Origin: a virus | Lineage: Duplodnaviria; Caudoviricetes | Virus record (IMG/VR): IMGVR_UViG_3300043395_001804 | Coordinates: 1 to 56,043 of that record | Reading direction: 5' to 3' (one strand) | DNA: 56,043 bases | In this document: positions 3,093 to 52,797 of the stretch, piece after piece | How the letters are laid out: each line of letters begins with the position of its first letter | How positions within the stretch are numbered: the stretch's first letter is position 1 | The notes under the pieces: generated by a model | Told to the model about the DNA's origin: nothing | Database searches by the model: none | The model's input: the letters and a program-made list of their open reading frames with translations, nothing else | Translations under genes and position numbers: made by a program

Positions 3093-5092
3093 TAGTTGTT
3101 TCTCCAATCTTGGAGTTTGATTGCCTGACTCCAATTGTCTTCGATGATTTCTGGTTTACAAATACACGGTACTCCATACTGCTTTCCTGCGTCTTGCATG
3201 ATAGTTGCTAAGTCTGATAACACCTTAACGATCCTTTCCCGCCCAAGCTTTTTCTGGAGAGAGAAAAGTAATTCGTCATGGATTTGTAGAATCAATGCGG
3301 CTTTACTTTTAGCTACGATGTTAGAGTAGTCGAAGTTTACTAAACGATTAGAGATTAAGTAACTGTCACAATTGGTTAAAGCTGTCTTGACGATATCGCC
3401 CTCGGTTCCTTGGACGATGTAATTTACTCCTGCGTAGGCTTTGCTTCGTTGAACGTGGAGTCGGTATCCACCGGCGGTTTCGACGTAGCCATGACGTTTG
3501 ACGAACGATACGGTTCTATCAATCGATTCCGTAACACAAGGAAATAGTGTCTGTACTCTTCGAAAGATTCCCTTGATTCCGCACGTTGCGTCGATCTTGC
3601 TTTCTCCTGCTCCGAATATGTATCCGAAGTTGACATTCTTTGCTACCCTCCGTTGTATCTTAGTTGGTTCATCGGTTTCAAAGATTTGCATAGCCATGTA
3701 GGTATGGAAATCGAAACCATCTTCAAACGCTTTAACTAGCTTTGGGTCTTTCGACCAGTAAGCAAAGATTCTAAGCTGTAATTGATCGTAGTCAATACTA
3801 GACCATATACGATCTTTGGTAGGGCCGAATACCTTACGGATGCAGTACGATGTAATGATGTTACCATTTTCATCAATACGTTCTTTGCCTTTGCTGATGT
3901 TCTGACCGTTAGGGTTTTCTGATGCTAAACGAGTAGTTGACGTACCTACTTGTTTGATGTTTGGTAGTAGTAAATAAACAGTACTACCGGATTTCTGTGT
4001 TCTGAATCGTATGTACGATTGTAGATAGTTGTTAGCTGCATTGACTTCACGGTACGCTATCATCGCGTCTACGAATTCAATTGCTGCTTTGGATTTCTTC
4101 TGGGTCTTGAGTTCTGGCAGTACGCTCTTATCAGTTGAGTCGTTTCCTGCATCGGTAAGTTTGACTGACTTGAATTTGAACTTGGTGAATAAGGCTTGGG
4201 ATAATTGTGGTGGGCTGTTGGGATTGAATTCGTTGTCGGATAGTAGTAATCGCATCTTAGCGACTAGACCAGCTTTGGTGCTCTCTGCTTCTTTAACTGC
4301 CTTGGGGAAGTGCGTATCGTGTATCGAGATTCCGCACTTGGTCATACGGTACAAAGGCATTACAACCTTTTGCTGTATCTCGTATGGCTTTAGTAAGTGC
4401 GTATTTACTTCGAATGTTTGTTCTTGGCGTATGAATAGTGCGGCTGTACGGATAGCGTCTTTGATCGCGTACTGCTTACATAGTTGCTTTCTAGGATCGG
4501 AGTCGGGAGCTAGTTGAGTTAGCCAAAAATCGCATTTGTGAAATCGATCTTTCTGTCCTGCGAGTTCTGGTAATCCTGCTTCTGCTAATCGTATCTTGCC
4601 TGACTCTGACTGAGGCTTGAACTGTCTACGTAACTCTTTGATGAAGTCATCTAGTTCTTTTTCGTCGTCGTCTAAGATATCGCAGTAGAGTAACGCTTGC
4701 TCTTTGAGTCCTAAAGGATCGCTTGAGTTTAGAACGTGTGCTCTAATCATTGTGTCATGATAATTGCAGTTATGCTCTAACTCGATTGGAAACGAGTTCC
4801 ATTCTGGAAGAGGGAGAAGAGAAAGCATGAACAGGTCAAAGTTCAAGTTATGGAATACTAGGGTCTTGAACGATGATACGTAGTTGTAAACCTGAGCTAG
4901 TGTTTTCTTAGACCAGTTAGGGGTTCGTGTGCGGGGATCTACGATGGCTTCCCAATACTTAGTTACTCCGTTGTTGTCGCATGTAGATATTGCGAATGCT
5001 TTGCAACCGTGGTGTCCGAATAGACCTGTTGTTTCTGTGTCGATTGCTAAGAATTTAGTGACTGCTTTGTATTTACGTACTGAAGTTGCCAT
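3092..5092 (-). CDS. polA: DNA polymerase, family A, with 3'-5' exonuclease
   Basis: ExoI DTETTG, ExoII HNLNFD, TTRLASENPN, motif A DYDQLQLR, motif B RRVAKNVNFGYIFG, motif C IHDEL. Confidence 0.95.
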   Translation of the reverse strand: MATSVRKYKAVTKFLAIDTETTGLFGHHGCKAFAISTCDNNGVTKYWEAIVDPRTRTPNWSKKTLAQVYNYVSSFKTLVFHNLNFDLFMLSLLPLPEWNSFPIELEHNCNYHDTMIRAHVLNSSDPLGLKEQALLYCDILDDDEKELDDFIKELRRQFKPQSESGKIRLAEAGLPELAGQKDRFHKCDFWLTQLAPDSDPRKQLCKQYAIKDAIRTAALFIRQEQTFEVNTHLLKPYEIQQKVVMPLYRMTKCGISIHDTHFPKAVKEAESTKAGLVAKMRLLLSDNEFNPNSPPQLSQALFTKFKFKSVKLTDAGNDSTDKSVLPELKTQKKSKAAIEFVDAMIAYREVNAANNYLQSYIRFRTQKSGSTVYLLLPNIKQVGTSTTRLASENPNGQNISKGKERIDENGNIITSYCIRKVFGPTKDRIWSSIDYDQLQLRIFAYWSKDPKLVKAFEDGFDFHTYMAMQIFETDEPTKIQRRVAKNVNFGYIFGAGESKIDATCGIKGIFRRVQTLFPCVTESIDRTVSFVKRHGYVETAGGYRLHVQRSKAYAGVNYIVQGTEGDIVKTALTNCDSYLISNRLVNFDYSNIVAKSKAALILQIHDELLFSLQKKLGRERIVKVLSDLATIMQDAGKQYGVPCICKPEIIEDNWSQAIKLQDWRNN

Positions 5093-10717: not shown

Positions 10718-11843
10718 TATTCTTTTCCATCTTTTGCTTAGTTGACAATGTTGCGTTGTCTATTCCTACGTTGTATCGGTATTTTAGTATTGCTTCTTTT
10801 TGTGCTTCATCATGGTATGGATGGTTAAGTCTCCATAGCTCCCAGTCTTCTCCAGCATTGTAGTGCTCGTAAATCATATCCCATCCAATTTGTAGAGCTT
10901 CGTTCTTCCAATTGATTTCATGCGTCTTATGAAAGAATAGAGGTTCTCCGAACCATTTCAATTCTACGTTCATTCGCCCTAAATGCCAAGGTATCCAATA
11001 GTCAAACATTGGTTGACCAATAGCGAAGTCTAAGTTCGGAAACTTTCCACAAAGTTCTTCTGGAAGAAGAAAAGCATCAATACCCCATCTTTCTATATCT
11101 CCATCCATTGGAGTGTCAATGAAGTTTCTTCGAATGCCAAGTGCAGGTGCTTGAGACATAAAAGAGTCTATTGGATGGTATATCTTTATGTCTGAGTTAA
11201 TTATTAGTTTGAAAGGTGTAGATACTTTAGCTGTGAGTAGGCTATGTATCTTTGGTGTTTGCTTATGGTAACGTAATGACGGTTCGCCTAGTTGAAATTC
11301 TACGTCTTTGAATATAGGCTTTAGTTGTTCAATTTCAGTATCTAGGTTTACTGATACTACATTAAAGCCACTACGTTGCCATGAGTTTAGACAATCTAGT
11401 TGAATATCTATGTTCGAATTATAGAACGATGTTACTATAGTAGCATCTCGTGACTTAGATACGATGTTGTCTTTTAAGTCTGGTCGCCAATAGAATAGTG
11501 CTTCATCTAAAGACCATGTAGGCTTTTGCAGCTTTAGGTTCACGAAGTTATGCAGTTCCCAACTCCAAGTGAAGTCTTCTAGTTCACCTAAGAATTTAGG
11601 TTGAACACTTTGTTTGAAGAACTGATAACCACTTGGGCAATTACACGATTTAGGAATGGTTGTTTCCCATTCGGCTAGCCATTCAGGAGTAAGTCTACGT
11701 TTAGTATGTAGTTTCTTCCAAGCAAGTCTACCAGATACTACAGTGGTATCGATGGTATTTTCATGCTGGACTATTGGGGTTGTTGTTAGCGATTTTTCGT
11801 TATGTTCTGAAGTTATCCAGAACAAAGGATGTTCAATGTCCAT
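10704..11843 (-). CDS. Erv1/Alr-like thiol oxidase domain fused to glycosyltransferase-like domain
   Basis: WKKLH...IPKSCNC...WSWELHNFVNLKLQKP (Erv pattern W..LH, Cys pair, HNxVN..L.KP); C-part INSDI...GIDAF...FDYW...FFH. Confidence 0.55.
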   Translation of the reverse strand: MDIEHPLFWITSEHNEKSLTTTPIVQHENTIDTTVVSGRLAWKKLHTKRRLTPEWLAEWETTIPKSCNCPSGYQFFKQSVQPKFLGELEDFTWSWELHNFVNLKLQKPTWSLDEALFYWRPDLKDNIVSKSRDATIVTSFYNSNIDIQLDCLNSWQRSGFNVVSVNLDTEIEQLKPIFKDVEFQLGEPSLRYHKQTPKIHSLLTAKVSTPFKLIINSDIKIYHPIDSFMSQAPALGIRRNFIDTPMDGDIERWGIDAFLLPEELCGKFPNLDFAIGQPMFDYWIPWHLGRMNVELKWFGEPLFFHKTHEINWKNEALQIGWDMIYEHYNAGEDWELWRLNHPYHDEAQKEAILKYRYNVGIDNATLSTKQKMEKNNVKS

Positions 11844-16403: not shown

Positions 16404-16436
16404 CGCTAAACCTTTTTCTGGAAAGAGGAAAAGAAA

Positions 16437-18851
16437 CTATGCGTAGTAATTTGCTCTATTGGCTTCAAATGAAATGTTAGCACAAGACGGATCACCTTTC
16501 AAGGCATAGGTAATGTCCCAAACTCCACGGAAGATCGGTAAGTCTGCGGATTTTCCTACTTGATAGCAAGTGTAGTTGCCTTCTCCGACTCTGTAAGCTT
16601 GTATTGTAATTGCTCCACCACCAGAGCCAGTACCGGCGTTTCTACAACCTACTAGGGTTGGACAGGGTACTGGATATCCGACTCGTAGAGCTTGGCCTGT
16701 AAATTGTACATAAGTAGTAACATTTCCGAATACTTGTACGTCACTGTATTCGTAGCCCGATGTTGTTGGCTCTGCATTGTTGTTACCGTTGATGTTGAAT
16801 ACTCTAGCATCCCTGCTTGTAGTTGCTGGTACAGCGGTTGTAGCTCTACTAGCAATAAGCTGCGGTTGAATGCTTGGGAATAGTACGCTGTTCTCATTAC
16901 GTCTTAGTTTGAACTTGGTGTCGTAGGATATCCAGGTTTGAGAAGGATTGACGTTCTTCAGATACGTAGAGTCGTTAGTTGGATCGTAAGACTTGTATGG
17001 TGACGTACTAAAATTTGATGTTGGCAATCCAGGTACGTCTTTCAAAGGAGCGTTACCACCCCATGCCTGATCTATGTTTTCTGGAAAGGGAAAGTTAAGA
17101 TTGCCGAATGTTTCCAAGTGAGCATTACGTCTGCGTTCAGCAAGTGTATGTGTGTTAGCTGAGTCAACATTATCGTAATCGAATGTAGCATTTGAGGATA
17201 CGATACTGCGTTCAGGGTTACGTGGGCCTGCATCATTTGAGAATCTATTTGGATTCCAACCATCGTAAGGGTTGAATACCATATCGTACCCAGGTAGTAG
17301 AGGGCCTCGATAACCAAATACATTCTGGGCATTAGCCATGTATTCGCGTGAGATACCCCATTGATTGCCGTAGCTTTGAGGTATTGCGTTGAATACGTGT
17401 TGCTGATTCGCTACTGTTATTGGCACTTTGCCTAAGTCTGCTGGCAGTACTTGGCCGTTCCATGCAATTGAGACTGGATAGAACAATCCAGTACTTACAA
17501 ACAAAGCGTTCAAGTTGGTAATTACTAGGTACTTGAGTGTGAATGAACATTCACGATTGTAAATGTTTTCTTTGATTGAAATGTTATGCAATAAGTGTCT
17601 ACGTTCTGCTCCCGTAGCTGCTACGTCTTGAATAGCTCCACTTAGAGCATCTTTGGTCTTTAGATTGACTTCATTTTGAAATGGAAGAGTACCGGCCATA
17701 CGTTGACGACATATCGTCATCATTGCTAACCATGCCCATCCTTTCCATACACCAGGACGTACAGTGAATGTACCTTCGAATACGTTGTTCCATGTTAAGA
17801 ATCCAGAGCCTTCGAATACATCGCCACCGAGTAAGCTAGACGATACTGAGTGCGATACGTCTGCTTTGAGGATGTTTGGAAGTATTGGGTTGTCGCTCTT
17901 AATTTCTCTATCGACGATTGTGTATTCGATAGATCGTTTGTTCTTCTTGAATTTGTACTTTTGAGTACGAGTAAAGCCAAGTGGGTGTAGAGGCTCAAAG
18001 TAGTGTGTAAGTACTTGAAGCAATCTTGGAATTGCAGTTGGAGATTCTTTTAAGCGATTGACTAGAGCACCTGTACCTACAAACTCTAGTTCGCCTGTTA
18101 GGGTCATAACGGCTGTACCGTCTTCGTCTATTTCGAACTCTTGTTCTTCAGTATGAGATAGTAAGTAGTTACTTACTTGACCACCTGAGTTACTTTGTTC
18201 GGGTGCAATATCGAAGATAGTATTTATGTAGTTGTTGACAATATCTGTGATTGTCTGAGCACCTGCATAAACTCTAGTTTGTCCTGTAAGTGCTCCTTGT
18301 TCTACAGTTCTTCCACCAAGATTGTTAGAAGTTTGTTGTTCTTGTTCTGGATTATCGAAACTGCCTGATTTGGTTTTGACTGGGCCTGTAGCGATGTTGA
18401 ATACGCATCGCCATTTGCATCGTACTGCGTTGTTGCCAGCTAAAGGTTCCCATGTAAGGACTTCGGGGAATGGGCCTTCGAAGATATTGAATGGTACGTG
18501 TCGTAGAGCGTTATTTACTCCAACTGTGTTGGTTACTGCTCTACCAATTATGTTCATTTCTGTACCCATACCGTGGTAGTACAGTTTCAGTTCTTTGTTC
18601 GGTGCTTGAAGTTCTTCATGGATTTTGTCCATTTGCTTATCAACACCAGTGTACAGAGGATCAGTGACGGTTACTGTCTCTGTAGTGATGATGAAGTCTA
18701 CTTCTAGTGTACATCTTACGTACTTAACTACTAGATTGTCTTCAGTGTAGACGTTCTGTTTGTTAAGTGTTACTTTTGAAAATGCGTGAAATAAGTAGTT
18801 ACCGTATTTGACTTGTTCGTATCGACATACTGGTTGTGGTTCATCTGGCAT
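16437..18851 (-). CDS. putative minor tail protein
   Basis: 804 aa directly downstream of tape-measure-like gene. Confidence 0.55.
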   Translation of the reverse strand: MPDEPQPVCRYEQVKYGNYLFHAFSKVTLNKQNVYTEDNLVVKYVRCTLEVDFIITTETVTVTDPLYTGVDKQMDKIHEELQAPNKELKLYYHGMGTEMNIIGRAVTNTVGVNNALRHVPFNIFEGPFPEVLTWEPLAGNNAVRCKWRCVFNIATGPVKTKSGSFDNPEQEQQTSNNLGGRTVEQGALTGQTRVYAGAQTITDIVNNYINTIFDIAPEQSNSGGQVSNYLLSHTEEQEFEIDEDGTAVMTLTGELEFVGTGALVNRLKESPTAIPRLLQVLTHYFEPLHPLGFTRTQKYKFKKNKRSIEYTIVDREIKSDNPILPNILKADVSHSVSSSLLGGDVFEGSGFLTWNNVFEGTFTVRPGVWKGWAWLAMMTICRQRMAGTLPFQNEVNLKTKDALSGAIQDVAATGAERRHLLHNISIKENIYNRECSFTLKYLVITNLNALFVSTGLFYPVSIAWNGQVLPADLGKVPITVANQQHVFNAIPQSYGNQWGISREYMANAQNVFGYRGPLLPGYDMVFNPYDGWNPNRFSNDAGPRNPERSIVSSNATFDYDNVDSANTHTLAERRRNAHLETFGNLNFPFPENIDQAWGGNAPLKDVPGLPTSNFSTSPYKSYDPTNDSTYLKNVNPSQTWISYDTKFKLRRNENSVLFPSIQPQLIASRATTAVPATTSRDARVFNINGNNNAEPTTSGYEYSDVQVFGNVTTYVQFTGQALRVGYPVPCPTLVGCRNAGTGSGGGAITIQAYRVGEGNYTCYQVGKSADLPIFRGVWDITYALKGDPSCANISFEANRANYYA

Positions 18852-24289: not shown

Positions 24290-24922
24290 TTATTCCAGAG
24301 AACCAGGGGGTGCAGGGGGTGGTAACTCTCTTAGTTGTTTTCTTCTGTCATACTCTTGTCTGACACGTTCAATTCTTCGTCTAGCTGCTTGTCTACGTTT
24401 GACTTCTCTTCTGTTCCAGTAGTTGGATAGAACTGGAAGAGACTTTTGAATTGCATCTGAAATCAAAGCTTCATCAGCTACGAAGATTTGTCGTTTTCTG
24501 TCTACGTCATCTGCATAAGGAACTGTTACCTCAAAGTGAATCGACTCAAGGTCTACCCTAACTATCTGGTCTTTGTTTCGTGGAACATAGACACCATTAC
24601 GAAACCATCCTGGTTTGAGGGCTTCAAGTAATCGTCTAGTTCTGATGTTGATTGCAATAGCACCAGCATATCGGTAATTGAGTCGTTTCTTCAGGTCTAT
24701 GGTCTTTTGGCTAAGCGGTTTCCATCTGTTACCATAGCTGTCAACTGCTTCCATTCTCCGATATGCTGGTACTCTTGCTTTCTGTAAAAAGGCTTGGTAG
24801 TTGAGCTTGACTACGTTGTATAGGATCAAGTTCAACGCAAAGTACTTGAATGCGTCATCCATTTTGTGTGGCTCTACACCACCTTCATGAGCTAGCAAAT
24901 CAAGTACGTGTCTTACAGCCAT
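24290..24922 (-). CDS. putative virion morphogenesis (neck/tail completion, Mu gpG-like) protein
   Basis: GNRWKPLSQKTI..K...RTRRL motif; position after head-tail adaptor. Confidence 0.55.
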   Translation of the reverse strand: MAVRHVLDLLAHEGGVEPHKMDDAFKYFALNLILYNVVKLNYQAFLQKARVPAYRRMEAVDSYGNRWKPLSQKTIDLKKRLNYRYAGAIAINIRTRRLLEALKPGWFRNGVYVPRNKDQIVRVDLESIHFEVTVPYADDVDRKRQIFVADEALISDAIQKSLPVLSNYWNRREVKRRQAARRRIERVRQEYDRRKQLRELPPPAPPGSLE

Positions 24923-35047: not shown

Positions 35048-36692
35048 CTAGAGAAAGAAACCGGAATCGTTGAAAGACTTTGGATAGCCAAGGTTCATCT
35101 GTAGCAGTTGAGGTACGTAGGCATTTAGTGAGTCTGCCGATACGGAATTCGCCTGAAACATAGGATCGTAACCTTGACCTTCCCAGGTAACATCATTGCA
35201 AGCATCGGAAAGTGTGTCAACAATATCATCTGTCATACCTGGATGTCCAGTCCAGGTAAATACTTCGTCCATGCACTCTTTGAGCCATGCTGCTTCTTCA
35301 GGTAAGTAAATGCGATTGTTACGCATTCGAAGTTGAGCATTCAAAGAATTTTGGATTTTATCTTTAGCTTTCGGGTTGGGTACTACGTTAAGACCGTAGT
35401 TAGCTGCTAACTGGGCAGGGCCGATACCTAGACCGTTAGTCTCCATTTTGACGTATTGAGGTTTCCATACTTTATAGATATCGCATAGAACCTTAACGCA
35501 TTCTGGAATTTCAGCACGCATACGCTTCATGTAGAGCCATAGTAGCTTGTAGTCATGAGTAAGACCCCAAACAGAATAGACTGTATGGGACATACCGTTA
35601 CGTGTTGTAGACTGATCGATGATGCCTTCTTTGACTGTTGCAGCAGAGTCAGCAGTCATGAAGACTTTCTTCAAGTCTTTGTAGTGAATACCTATTTCGT
35701 TGATAACGAAGTACTCGCCTTTGGATTTATAGAATCTAACGTCTTGGACTCTGAAGCGTGAATCAGGAGAAGCGTCCCAATCGCCATGCTCTAATTGAAG
35801 CTTACGTACTTCATCTAGTTCTTGGAGAGATTGACGATACGATCTTTGATCGATGTATTCGTTATCTCGTAAAGAAGACGGTACGAATGGTTTGTTAGGA
35901 TTACGACCTACCCAACGAATACGCTTAGAAACAGCCTTAGTTTCGTGGTCTACTACATCGTAAAGTTCTTTCTCAATTTGGTATCTATTCTTTATCCAGA
36001 GGTGTCCTGGGCCGCCTGGGTTACACGACATTCGAAAGCGAATAGGAATAGACTTATACATTTGACAGATGCTACAGTTATCCATGTAGTTTGGAACCAT
36101 TTCACCGCTTTTAGGATCTTTCTTTAGCTTGTGCTTTGGACAGACCTTTTTACGAAGACGGGAAAAGAGATATCTAGGAGCTTGGTCGTTTTCAAAGTGT
36201 CCAGCTTCGTCGATTGCAGCAAATTGGAATTCTGCCCCTTGGTAGCGTTCTTCAACTCGGTAATCACCAAGATAGCCGAACTGAAGCTTCGCGTAAGGGC
36301 CAGGAGTTCCATCAGGCCAAGTCGTATCGAAGTAGTACGTATGTTCGTCTGGTGAGTAATGGGCGGTTTTAACGCCACGTAGCCACTGAGAAGCACGATC
36401 CAATAGAGCTTCGTTCTGCTTCAACTCTACGAGAGTTCGACGAAGGATTAGAGCAGAGTACCCAGGGGTATCTGCAAACTGCAATGCTGCCATTAGGAGA
36501 ACGTCTGATTTGCCTTTTGCCCCCTACAACCCAACCCTCTTTCTGGAAGAGAGAAGAGAAAACGTAGGGGGCTTAAACGCCTCCCCCTGCTGCCCCGCCA
36601 AACAATGCGTCTAGGTGGGGAAGCAGGAGGAACTGTAACTGAGTGGCGAATGGCTTGTGCGGAATATACTGGGAGCACCAGGGGATACGCAT
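35048..36692 (-). CDS. terL: terminase large subunit, interrupted in Walker A by a 67-nt insert (36512-36578)
   Basis: ATG 36692 gives MRIPW...DALFGGAAGGG then GTT TAA; another frame resumes GKSDVLLMAALQ...IDEA (Walker B), SCNPGG, nuclease TADSA, ETNG, TDDIVD. Confidence 0.9.
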
Positions 36693-36719: not shown

Positions 36720-37193
36720 TTAAGCGAAGTGAAGTCTACAAGCTTCACAGATTAGTACTGAGTCTGCGGTGATAGGACTTAGATTAGGTGCTCTAGTGAG
36801 CCTAGAGGCTAGTACGAGCATCTTGTCTTTGTCACTACCTGGGGCGTTTACTAACTTCTTCCATTGAACAGGAGTTGGATACCAGAAAGACGTTACACCT
36901 TTGGCATGTAACATGCCTTTGATAAGTCCGAACTGTTCATGAAGACTTGCTATGGCTTTAGTGCCTTTGCTGAACATCATTGGGCGTTCAATGGTGATGA
37001 AGCACTCGGACTTACTACATAGATCAGATAGTAGATTGAACATTTCTGGTTCTAAGATAGTTCGTTGCCGAGTTTCGTCACCATGACGTTTATGAAACGG
37101 ATAGATAGCCCAGTAAGGCTTCGATCCTGGTAACTTTGATTGGACGGTTAATGCACCTTTTTGGCCTAAGTCGATACCGATGTAGCGAATCAT
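36720..37193 (-). CDS. RuvC-like Holliday junction resolvase
   Basis: IGIDLGQKG, TIERP, PVQWKK, ADSVLI. Confidence 0.75.
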   Translation of the reverse strand: MIRYIGIDLGQKGALTVQSKLPGSKPYWAIYPFHKRHGDETRQRTILEPEMFNLLSDLCSKSECFITIERPMMFSKGTKAIASLHEQFGLIKGMLHAKGVTSFWYPTPVQWKKLVNAPGSDKDKMLVLASRLTRAPNLSPITADSVLICEACRLHFA

Positions 37194-39391: not shown

Positions 39392-39533
39392 GAAAGAACT
39401 TGAAATACTCAAGAAGATCAAAGTTAAAAAGAAGACTGTTAGTACTGATACCTGTATAGCTTGTGGTGGTACAGGTATATCATCATCGGGTTCGCGTTGT
39501 CATCCTTGTTCTGGAAGAGGAAAAAAGAAATGA
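39372..39533 (+). CDS. small basic protein with DnaJ-type Zn finger, 53 aa (not in ORF track)
   Basis: CIACGGTG and CHPCSGRG repeats; stop overlaps next ATG. Confidence 0.65.
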   Translation: MPKKYSKKELEILKKIKVKKKTVSTDTCIACGGTGISSSGSRCHPCSGRGKKK

Positions 39534-41397: not shown

Positions 41398-41976
41398 ATG
41401 GCTAACTCAATACATTCAATCAGAGTTATAGATGGAGACACAGTAGAAGCTATGGTAGCTGGTACTGAGTTCTTCAAGAATGATTACAAGCTACTTAGTA
41501 TCCGTATCTATGGTGTCGATACTCCAGAGAAGAGTACTCTAGCTGGTAAGCTAGTCAAACAAGTAGTGATACAGACCTTGGCTAGCTATAAGCAACCAAT
41601 GGTCATATATGCTACTGAAGATAAGTTCTCTGGTCGTGGAGTAGGAGACATAGTAGATGGGCCTAATCAGACTTGGCCTACACTTGGTAAGTTCCTGTTC
41701 GAACACGGACTTGCTAGAGCTTACTATGGTGGTGCTAAGAAACCTTGGACTGATAAAGAACTTCTGGAGGTAGAAAAGAAATGTAGTCTACTACTGCCAG
41801 AGTACCATGACGAACAGATACGAGTAGCTACTATTAGTAACGATCAGCAGTACAGCTTAGAGCAAGAACGATCCAGTGTAGTGTACTATGGTACTGGGAG
41901 TATTAGACAAGCATCAGCCTTTGAAGTGACAAAGATGCCTAGTGTACAAGAGTGGCTAGAGTCACCACAGTTCTAA
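41398..41976 (+). CDS. thermonuclease (SNase-like)
   Basis: RVIDGDTV, IRIYGVDTPE, DKFSGR, GLARAY motifs. Confidence 0.8.
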   Translation: MANSIHSIRVIDGDTVEAMVAGTEFFKNDYKLLSIRIYGVDTPEKSTLAGKLVKQVVIQTLASYKQPMVIYATEDKFSGRGVGDIVDGPNQTWPTLGKFLFEHGLARAYYGGAKKPWTDKELLEVEKKCSLLLPEYHDEQIRVATISNDQQYSLEQERSSVVYYGTGSIRQASAFEVTKMPSVQEWLESPQF

Positions 41977-52718: not shown

Positions 52719-52723
52719 CTTAG

Positions 52724-52797
52724 CTTGCCTGACCGGAGTTGAACCGGCAACTACACTTTAGAAGGGTGTTGCTTTTCCTGGATTAAGCTACAGGCAA
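52724..52797 (-). tRNA. tRNA-Arg(UCU)
   Basis: Acceptor TTGCCTG/CAGGCAA, D stem GCTT/AAGC, anticodon loop CT-TCT-AA (one C.A mismatch), T arm GCCGG-TTCAACT-CCGGT; no encoded CCA. Confidence 0.8.

Follow-up and report, generated by a model that had tools for sequence, protein, structure and literature searches.

The window analysed here, a 56,043-bp stretch rated 99% complete that makes up the whole of IMG/VR record IMGVR_UViG_3300043395_001804 (Duplodnaviria; Caudoviricetes), carries a gene for the large terminase subunit, terL, whose coding sequence is split within the Walker A motif (P-loop) by 67 nucleotides (nt). The gene lies on the minus strand, as do all of its parts. Exon 1 (36579..36692) comprises 38 codons, from the ATG to the seventh P-loop codon (MRIPWCSQYIPHKPFATQLQFLLLPHLDALFGGAAGGG), and exon 2 (35048..36511) runs from KSDVLLMAALQ... 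to the stop codon and encodes the remainder of the ATPase and the nuclease domain. Between them lies a coding gap (36512..36578) made up of GUU, UAA, a hairpin, AAAA and a second GGC. One open reading frame (ORF) of 39 amino acids (aa) extends over 36692..36573 and ends in ...LDALFGGAAGGGV at its stop; another, of 481 aa, occupies 36493..35048, has its first Met at 36493, starts with MAALQ... and matches PHROG 979, terminase large subunit (1.1e-36).

The split falls between the seventh Walker A codon (GGC) and the Lys codon (AAA) of the motif, that is, ...GGAAGGG / KS.... The minus-strand order given in a first-pass annotation of this DNA, ...GGC GGG GCA GCA GGG GGA GGC / GTT TAA GCCCCCTAC ... 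GTAGGGGGC AAAA GGC / AAA TCA GAC, is correct, as is its statement that deleting 36578-36512 gives back Walker A (GGAAGGGKS), because homologues free of the interruption read ...LDALFGGAAGGGKSDVLLMAALQ... across the P-loop. Frame 0 does end at the UAA after one extra codon, and the downstream frame does have a UAG four codons before the second GGC. When two full-length homologues were used as tblastn queries, they matched nowhere in the window besides the locus at 36 kb, so this phage has a single terL, and a second copy in the stretch was rejected.

Several features can be placed within the gap and at its borders. The proposed take-off codon, GGC (36581-36579), is the last codon of exon 1; a single sense codon (GUU, 36578-36576) stands between it and the in-frame UAA (36573..36575). 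The 5′ arm of a basal stem, GCCCCCUAC(G), follows at 36563..36572, and the 3′ arm, (U)GUAGGGGGC, at 36519..36528, holds both a run resembling a Shine-Dalgarno (SD) sequence, AGGGGG (36525-36520), and a cognate 'decoy' GGC. The upper hairpin (36540..36562) consists of a pyrimidine tract and CUUCCAGAAA, and contains one copy of a motif dispersed through the genome. The second GGC, the proposed landing codon (36512..36514), is followed by AAA, the Lys of GKS.

The insert is present in independent assemblies

The stretch occurs in 24 DNA sequencing runs from 14 studies. Logan contigs from runs of three other studies span the insert without gaps or joints: record 5 of run X4 has 0 differences from the stretch, record 8 of run X5 covers the whole 701 nt and has the insert without any difference, and record 10 of run X8 has a single T-to-C change (mRNA sense), located in the pyrimidine tract. 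In a fourth run, X11, the contigs do not reach the insert. An insert-free joint was found in none of the contigs of these 4 runs; since contigs drop rare variants, a minority form is possible. Among the insert-bearing relatives are two genomes, 100% complete, that have terminal repeats. An assembly artefact does not account for the insert.

Seven variants at one site in a single clade

A check of related terL genes at the same site, which the first-pass annotation had called for, revealed inserts in L002-L006 (IMG/VR contigs) and in L045, L046 and L049 (metagenome contigs). Together with the stretch, these represent seven distinct variants, with lengths of 61, 64, 64, 64, 66, 67 and 67 nt. Among 16 further loci inspected, 3 have an insert, 9 are uninterrupted (L043, L044, L047, L048, L050, L051, L052, L055 and L007), 3 carry an intein (L041, L053 and L054) and 1 (L040) could not be judged. 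As read from these sequences, a conserved insert occurs in a group of freshwater phages. In a quick maximum-likelihood tree (IQ-TREE, 48 rows), every insert-bearing row falls inside one 21-row clade (support 100), where such rows are interleaved with uninterrupted ones, and the insert label requires at least 3 changes. Insert-free relatives align collinearly with the stretch for 1.5 kb to either side and differ from it in length by the 67 nt alone; thus, no endonuclease gene arrived with the insert.

A pattern scan of viral contigs returned 24 stretches, of which only 5 are terL and 19 are chance matches, and pattern and protein-guided scans combined yielded no insert loci besides L002-L006, L045, L046 and L049. 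At the protein level, 11 of the 120 best TerL homologues begin with the Met directly behind the P-loop, and in 2 the called protein runs on through the insert. The Met-started homologues (P0002, P0007-P0010, P0013, P0021, P0075, P0080, P0087 and P0101) reach down to 35% identity. Coding gaps or other interruptions at the P-loop site may be far commoner than is apparent from the seven variants known at the DNA level; in L148, which is related to P0075, the interruption is an intein. P0121, a separately called 39-aa ORF seen as protein only, appears to be a more distant variant, as it ends in ...GGAAGGGR, with one sense codon and then the stop. It is the only small-ORF relative found with the 39-aa exon-1 peptide as query, because small ORFs are seldom called. 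In the IMG/VR contig L040 (57% TerL identity), the TerL match does not begin until query residue 92; what lies upstream appears to be unrelated sequence and may reflect another interruption, perhaps an intein at a different site.

As regards the host, a blastn search gave no match. The nearest relatives in genome contigs are at most 39% identical and come from many phyla, and matches in cultured phages (at most 37% identity) are a mixture of bacterial and archaeal ones.

Purifying selection on both exons as far as the junction

Among insert-bearing variants, the proportion of synonymous differences (pS) in exon 1 is 0.40-0.77 and that of nonsynonymous differences (pN) 0.02-0.07, the corresponding values for exon 2 being 0.54-0.82 and 0.035-0.11; these ranges leave out the near-identical pair L002/L003 (exon 1: 0.04/0). 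KSDVLL, the six codons between the junction and the first in-frame ATG, shows synonymous changes only. The low pN in both exons, together with the exclusively synonymous changes in KSDVLL, indicates that both frames are translated up to the junction, which in turn rules out decay as well as a TerL initiated at Met 36493. Between variants, the insert differs by 0.03-0.32 per site, below the synonymous divergence of the flanking gene. The argument of the first-pass annotation against random decay is thus borne out by purifying selection on both exons, by the same site being used in seven variants, by the conserved hairpin and by independent assemblies, and a decayed terL was discarded as an explanation.

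Conserved anatomy of the gap

The order of elements, namely GGY, GUU, UAA or UAG, the basal stem GCCCCCUAC/GUAGGGGGC, a G-run, GGY and AAR, is kept in all seven variants. So is the stop, UAA or UAG, despite a 1-nt indel right behind it. The take-off and landing codons are GGC/GGC in two variants, GGC/GGU in four and GGU/GGU in one, so that each pair is cognate to one tRNA, whereas the same Gly codon in uninterrupted relatives (n=9) uses all four GGN. An AGGC direct repeat, to which the first-pass annotation had drawn attention, exists in the stretch; in other variants, the repeat is only GGC or GG, and it measures only 2-3 nt in five of the seven. The SD-like AGGGGG 5 nt before the second GGC was rightly noted; GGGGG, followed by C and an A/U-rich 4-mer, precedes the landing GGY in every variant. 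To judge from its letters, the landing site, with its G-run and A/U-rich 5-nt spacer, resembles an initiation region in all seven.

The gap lengths are 1 mod 3 in six of the seven variants. A rule that the length must be 1 mod 3 was considered and dropped, as the gap of L049 is 66 nt. The individual indels have lengths not divisible by three; in one example, -1 at UAAG/UAG is combined with -2 elsewhere.

The 9-nt stem arms have exact copies in the stretch only at 36564-36572 and 36519-36527, in agreement with what had been reported for them. A pyrimidine-rich strand pairs with a purine-rich one, and the apical loop CCAGARA is kept in 7/7 variants. Folded alone, the insert of the stretch reaches -30.4 kcal/mol (z -4.15, with 0/200 shuffles as stable), while in a 101-nt context z is only -1.35; all seven inserts lie between -29.9 and -33.7 kcal/mol, with z from -3.75 to -5.08. 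The hairpins comprise 19-23 pairs and start 5-6 nt past the take-off codon (9-10 nt from the first base of that codon). The sense strand, whose fold includes 2-4 G-U pairs, exceeds the antisense strand in stability by 5-14 kcal/mol, which suggests structure at the level of mRNA. In the alignment, 93.6% of cells pair, as against 53-62% with the partner slid. Helix 1 is 98.6% paired; in L002/L003, a double change has turned an A-U pair into G-C, and there are three G-U substitutions, including wobbles in L004 and L006. An alternative 5′ hairpin, in which the end of exon 1 pairs with the 5′ arm, is predicted to be possible in all seven variants (-10.6 to -17.8 kcal/mol).

A covariance model, R1, built from the variant alignment finds exactly one strong copy in each of the six genomes searched and, elsewhere in them, weak matches only (at most 19 bits). 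An Rfam scan by E-value of 301 nt on both strands returned 7 sub-threshold matches, the best of 22.3 bits against a gathering score of 61, and none of these is an intron or a ribozyme.

Lateral exchange at a P-loop hotspot

In its TerL, the stretch groups with L002/L003 (92% identity), while its insert differs from theirs at 19-20 of 63 sites and from that of L005, whose TerL is 80% identical, at only 3 of 67. When positions 36489-36632 are compared with L005, the two are identical over 54 nt at the end of exon 1 and 23 nt at the start of exon 2, against about 19% difference elsewhere. This patch of near-identity indicates recombination, in the form of a recent gene conversion that moved the insert between lineages. 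Since the insert is near-identical to that of L005 inside such a patch despite the TerL identity of 80%, it moves laterally. An exchange of the insert together with short flanks is like the homing of an intron or an intein.

The site is also used by inteins. L041, L053, L054 and L148 each have an intein inserted between the Lys and the Ser of GKS, with the junctions ...GGGK / Q...THN / S..., at a point 3 nt downstream from where the insert lies. These inteins begin with Gln rather than Cys or Ser, from which we presume that they belong to class 3. Those of L053 and L054 are 363 and 378 aa long, and their matches to the LAGLIDADG_3 domain score 29 bits and 17.8 bits, respectively (cut-off 22.5). 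The position between Lys and Thr/Ser is the classic P-loop intein site in TerL, and inteins at this site splice and their endonucleases cut intein-free alleles, as stated in PMC5050341. The insert shares the hotspot with these elements, but it cannot be one of them: it has no in-frame ORF, contains frame-0 stops and is 61-67 nt long. Being too short and stop-bearing to encode an intein, it must be removed at the level of RNA or of the ribosome. According to the gene 60 preprint (bioRxiv 10.1101/2022.08.31.505936), the T4 bypass insert protects against nicking by MobA. By analogy, the terL insert would break up the target of LAGLIDADG intein endonucleases, thereby protecting the P-loop codons.

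The dispersed motif and neighbouring genes

The first-pass annotation also held that the loop carries a motif dispersed through the phage. This motif, a pyrimidine tract plus TTCCAGAR, is real: it occurs 6 times in the stretch, always on the minus strand (4802-4817, 11058-11073, 16416-16431, 17079-17094, 36541-36556 and 39509-39524), against 1 for the reversed control. Looser copies are located at 1825, 6260, 6767 and 21455 and, on the plus strand, at 24293 and 39348. TTCCAGA occurs 27 times, compared with 12.8±3.4 in Markov-2 simulations. In five related genomes, the numbers of strict copies, all of them on the gene strand (reversed control in brackets), are 6 (1) in G000, 5 (0) in G001, 6 (0) in G002, 0 (1) in G003 and 3 (0) in G005.

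Several copies sit between a stop codon and the SD sequence and start of the next gene, for instance, that at 16416-16431, and others inside long ORFs (DNA polymerase, Sak4). A role of the motif as promoter, translation enhancer or processing site is conceivable. Because copies lie between stop and SD/start, the gap resembles an intercistronic junction of this phage in which a Gly codon replaces the start. The notion that the motif marks a family of similar hairpins was rejected, as the five other sites have z from -0.09 to +1.50, no better than shuffles.

A gene for a RuvC-like Holliday-junction resolvase (PHROG 159, 2.9e-06; 36720-37193, minus strand) is located directly upstream of terL. 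The insert-free relatives have it too, so it is not tied to the insert. Six neighbouring ORFs had no match in Pfam at E 0.01, and a sequence search of the PDB was negative. The only tRNA gene of the genome is a tRNA-Arg (anticodon TCT) at 52723-52797 on the minus strand. Within a block of plus-strand genes at 38.8-42 kb lies an endonuclease-like ORF of 192 aa (41398-41976, plus strand) that matches PHROG 452 at 4.8e-10 and, in Pfam, SNase at 20.4 bits, slightly below the cut-off.

How full-length TerL may be made

The first-pass annotation proposed that either recoding or excision is needed to produce full-length TerL. The need for one of the two is upheld by the variants at the same site, by the selection on both exons and by the hairpin, while bypassing itself is what we infer. 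The reading we favour, tentatively and at slightly less than even odds, is that these 67 nt are a coding gap, functional and exchanged laterally, within the single terL of the phage, and that full-length TerL arises through programmed translational bypassing. Signals of the bypass type are present in all seven variants, i.e. cognate GGY codons for take-off and landing, a stop as the second codon past take-off and a G-run located 5 nt upstream of the landing codon. Natural cassettes of gene 60 also use GGU/GGC pairs, according to the preprint (bioRxiv 10.1101/2022.08.31.505936).

Under programmed bypassing, the ribosome would reach the Gly codon GGC at the end of exon 1, where a hairpin of about -31 kcal/mol located 5-6 nt downstream would block normal translocation, the next-but-one codon being a stop. 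The peptidyl-tRNA-Gly, which would read both GGC and GGU, might then release the take-off codon, and the gap would traverse the decoding centre unread. Two features could help: the G-rich end of exon 1 may, on exiting, pair with the C-rich 5′ arm, and the G-run may act as an internal SD sequence. The tRNA would finally re-pair on the second GGY, with decoding restarted at AAA to yield ...GGAAGGG-KS.... That pairing of the exiting mRNA drives bypassing is an idea set out in another preprint (bioRxiv 10.1101/2024.12.09.627546), and the alternative 5′ hairpin fits it. That the insert 'gates' the production of TerL, as had been suggested, is speculation.

Several observations weigh against this reading. 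The codon in the A site at take-off is GUU in all seven variants, which is neither a stop nor rare, being common in the phage (17.7 per 1000). Every gap has 2-3 cognate GGY triplets in its 3′ half, and one such decoy, 7 nt before the productive site, would lead into a dead-end frame. A hairpin of 20 bp would be hard for a 70S ribosome to thread or hop over. A nascent-peptide signal is not identifiable, because exon 1 is the same in insert-free relatives. Support from covariation is modest, with seven related sequences and two pairs showing double changes; the prevailing gap length of 1 mod 3 is not something that a hop requires; and none of the sequencing runs listed for the stretch is an RNA run.

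The main rival is excision at the level of RNA, which we consider possible, if on balance unlikely. Here, the two GGY triplets would meet at the base of the hairpin; an endonuclease, either from the host or an unrecognised one of the phage, together with a ligase, or else an undescribed self-cleaving fold, would remove the 61-67 nt, and the shortened mRNA would be translated in the ordinary way. Neither the GGY decoys nor the sense codon before the stop would hinder splicing, the structure is conserved and specific to the sense strand, the CCAGARA loop could be a protein-binding site, and the site is a hotspot of self-removing elements, namely inteins. The junctions also lie at a fixed distance from the base of the stem (5-6 nt at the 5′ junction, 7 nt at the 3′ junction), and GUUU, the first four bases of the gap, could pair with the first four of exon 2, AAAU or AAGU, in 7/7 variants, in a loosely bulge-helix-bulge-like manner. 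The arrangement GGY / GUUU:AAAU / GGY can be drawn as such a motif in each of them. Archaeal bulge-helix-bulge structures have two 3-nt bulges, a 4-bp helix between them and flanking helices, and belong to archaeal hosts; in the terL insert, however, the outer exon-exon helix of a true bulge-helix-bulge is absent, a 2x4 internal loop precedes the main stem, and there is no sign of an archaeal host in the mixed cultured-phage matches. Moreover, no RtcB or RNA-ligase domain (including the Rnl2 type) was found in the genome, the matches of the Rfam scan are all far below the gathering score, and the conserved stop and the GGY in the last three bases of the gap have no obvious role in splicing. 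To our knowledge, no bacterial or phage intron class is this small. A group I or group II intron or a known ribozyme was excluded, given the absence of an Rfam family match and a size far below that of known introns.

Precise deletion at the level of DNA, with replication slipping at the hairpin from one GGY repeat to the other and so generating an insert-free minority that supplies TerL in trans, is improbable. An inverted repeat flanked by direct repeats of 2-4 nt is a classic substrate for deletion, a RuvC-like resolvase gene lies immediately upstream and the clade holds insert-free alleles. Yet the direct repeat is merely 2-3 nt in most variants, the resolvase gene is shared with insert-free relatives, and the contigs, which would drop rare forms, display no insert-free joint. 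The G-U wobbles and the advantage of the sense strand point to RNA, and revertants would be expected to sweep, whereas the insert persists across lineages with pS >0.5.

We deem it still harder to credit that no fusion occurs, with terL either inactive or working in two pieces and the phages reliant on a helper or on a P-loop-less TerL made from Met 36493. Gene callers do annotate forms of 474-487 aa, and 11 of the 120 listed homologues start at that Met. Nevertheless, exon 1 and KSDVLL are under purifying selection without a start codon of their own for the latter, the split falls between Gly and Lys of GxxxxGKS, and the genomes are complete and widespread, with a single terL.

Finally, a +1 frameshift before the stop, with the insert translated as 21-22 aa within the P-loop, would agree with the six gap lengths of 1 mod 3 and with the +1 frame being open in L002, L003 and L004, but it is highly improbable and largely refuted by L049, where the gap is 0 mod 3 and has two stops in frame, and by TAG in the +1 frame of four of the seven variants, quite apart from a peptide that is not conserved across variants and a P-loop that would be destroyed. 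Indeed, read-through and a single frameshift both fail, because the 66-nt gap of L049 contains an in-frame UAA and UAG and a UAG interrupts the +1 frame in those four; a read-through product would place 21-22 unconserved residues inside GxxxxGKS.

Comparison with known systems

The first-pass annotation likened the gap to that of T4 gene 60. The likeness holds for the matched Gly codons, the nearby stop and the SD-like run, and breaks down over the GUU before the stop, the GGY decoys and the single long hairpin. By comparison with the preprint (bioRxiv 10.1101/2022.08.31.505936), both systems have a non-coding block in an essential phage gene, Gly codons that match and share one tRNA, a stop close to the take-off codon and, upstream of landing, an SD-like triplet (at a distance of 5-7 nt in gene 60). 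Gene 60 has mRNA structure at take-off, a part that the hairpin starting 5-6 nt past the take-off codon may play in terL. Both are mobile with a patchy distribution, the T4 insert disrupting the target of a homing endonuclease. In contrast, the host gene here is terL, at its P-loop, and not a topoisomerase; the sequences are dissimilar, and no endonuclease gene is linked to the insert within 1.5 kb. The gap measures 61-67 nt, against 50 or 20 there, a sense codon separates take-off from the stop, and a long hairpin spans nearly the whole gap in place of a compact tetraloop stem-loop (in the A site). A gene 60/MobA cassette related by homology was thus rejected on the grounds of the host gene terL, the lack of a linked endonuclease gene and the lack of an Rfam match.

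The byps of Magnusiomyces capitatus are eukaryotic, mitochondrial elements of 27-55 nt with many copies per genome, while here there is one copy per phage genome. They are otherwise comparable as short, mobile, structured inserts that ribosomes skip between matched codons. PMC10732093, which mentions these elements, treats the terminase of Streptomyces phage Hau3, where a large terminase gene has frame-disrupting non-coding blocks whose flanks abut in relatives and for which bypassing was proposed; these blocks are 7-10 nt long, begin with a rare UUA codon and are tied to host tRNA availability. The present gap differs from them in being a 61-67-nt hairpin without a rare codon and in its P-loop site. 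In shunting on the 35S leader of cauliflower mosaic virus, a short ORF terminates immediately ahead of a strong hairpin, close to its base, and decoding is taken up again directly beyond it. That process relies on scanning by the eukaryotic 40S subunit and on re-initiation, with separate products, whereas here one polypeptide must continue. A description of a coding gap in the P-loop of terL was not found in the literature searched, though further cassettes or terminase cases may appear in supplementary files to the gene 60 preprint and to PMC10732093.

A more far-reaching proposal, which we regard as doubtful, is that the insert belongs to a new, non-homologous class of mobile 'bypass cassette', whose hairpin mimics the intercistronic layout, is crossed by 70S ribosomes and immunises the P-loop against intein endonucleases. 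In such a cassette, a stop, a pyrimidine tract with CCAGAAA, an SD-like G-run, a spacer and a Gly codon where the start would be would follow one another. The 70S ribosomes with peptidyl-tRNA-Gly would probably skip the folded helix rather than scan linearly, and the cassette might have spread by recombination because of the immunity of the P-loop to intein homing endonucleases.

Implications

Experimental proof of long-range bypassing has so far come essentially from a single phage family, that of T4 gene 60 with its homologues. Besides it, there are the byps of yeast mitochondria and an unproven 10-nt case in a Streptomyces phage terminase. If bypassing is true for the terL insert, an independent cassette that combines a long hairpin with cognate decoys and with a sense codon ahead of the stop would show which of the rules are general, and would offer a second natural system for studying how a peptidyl-tRNA is retained while the mRNA moves. 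If, on the other hand, RNA processing removes the insert, no smaller intron-like element would be known from a phage protein gene. On the practical side, gene callers truncate TerL in this phage group because of the insert, with 13 of the 120 best homologues mis-started at the site or called through it. Either way, the insert would represent a third mode, beside inteins and introns, in which DNA of a selfish or defensive kind occupies the most conserved codons of an essential gene.

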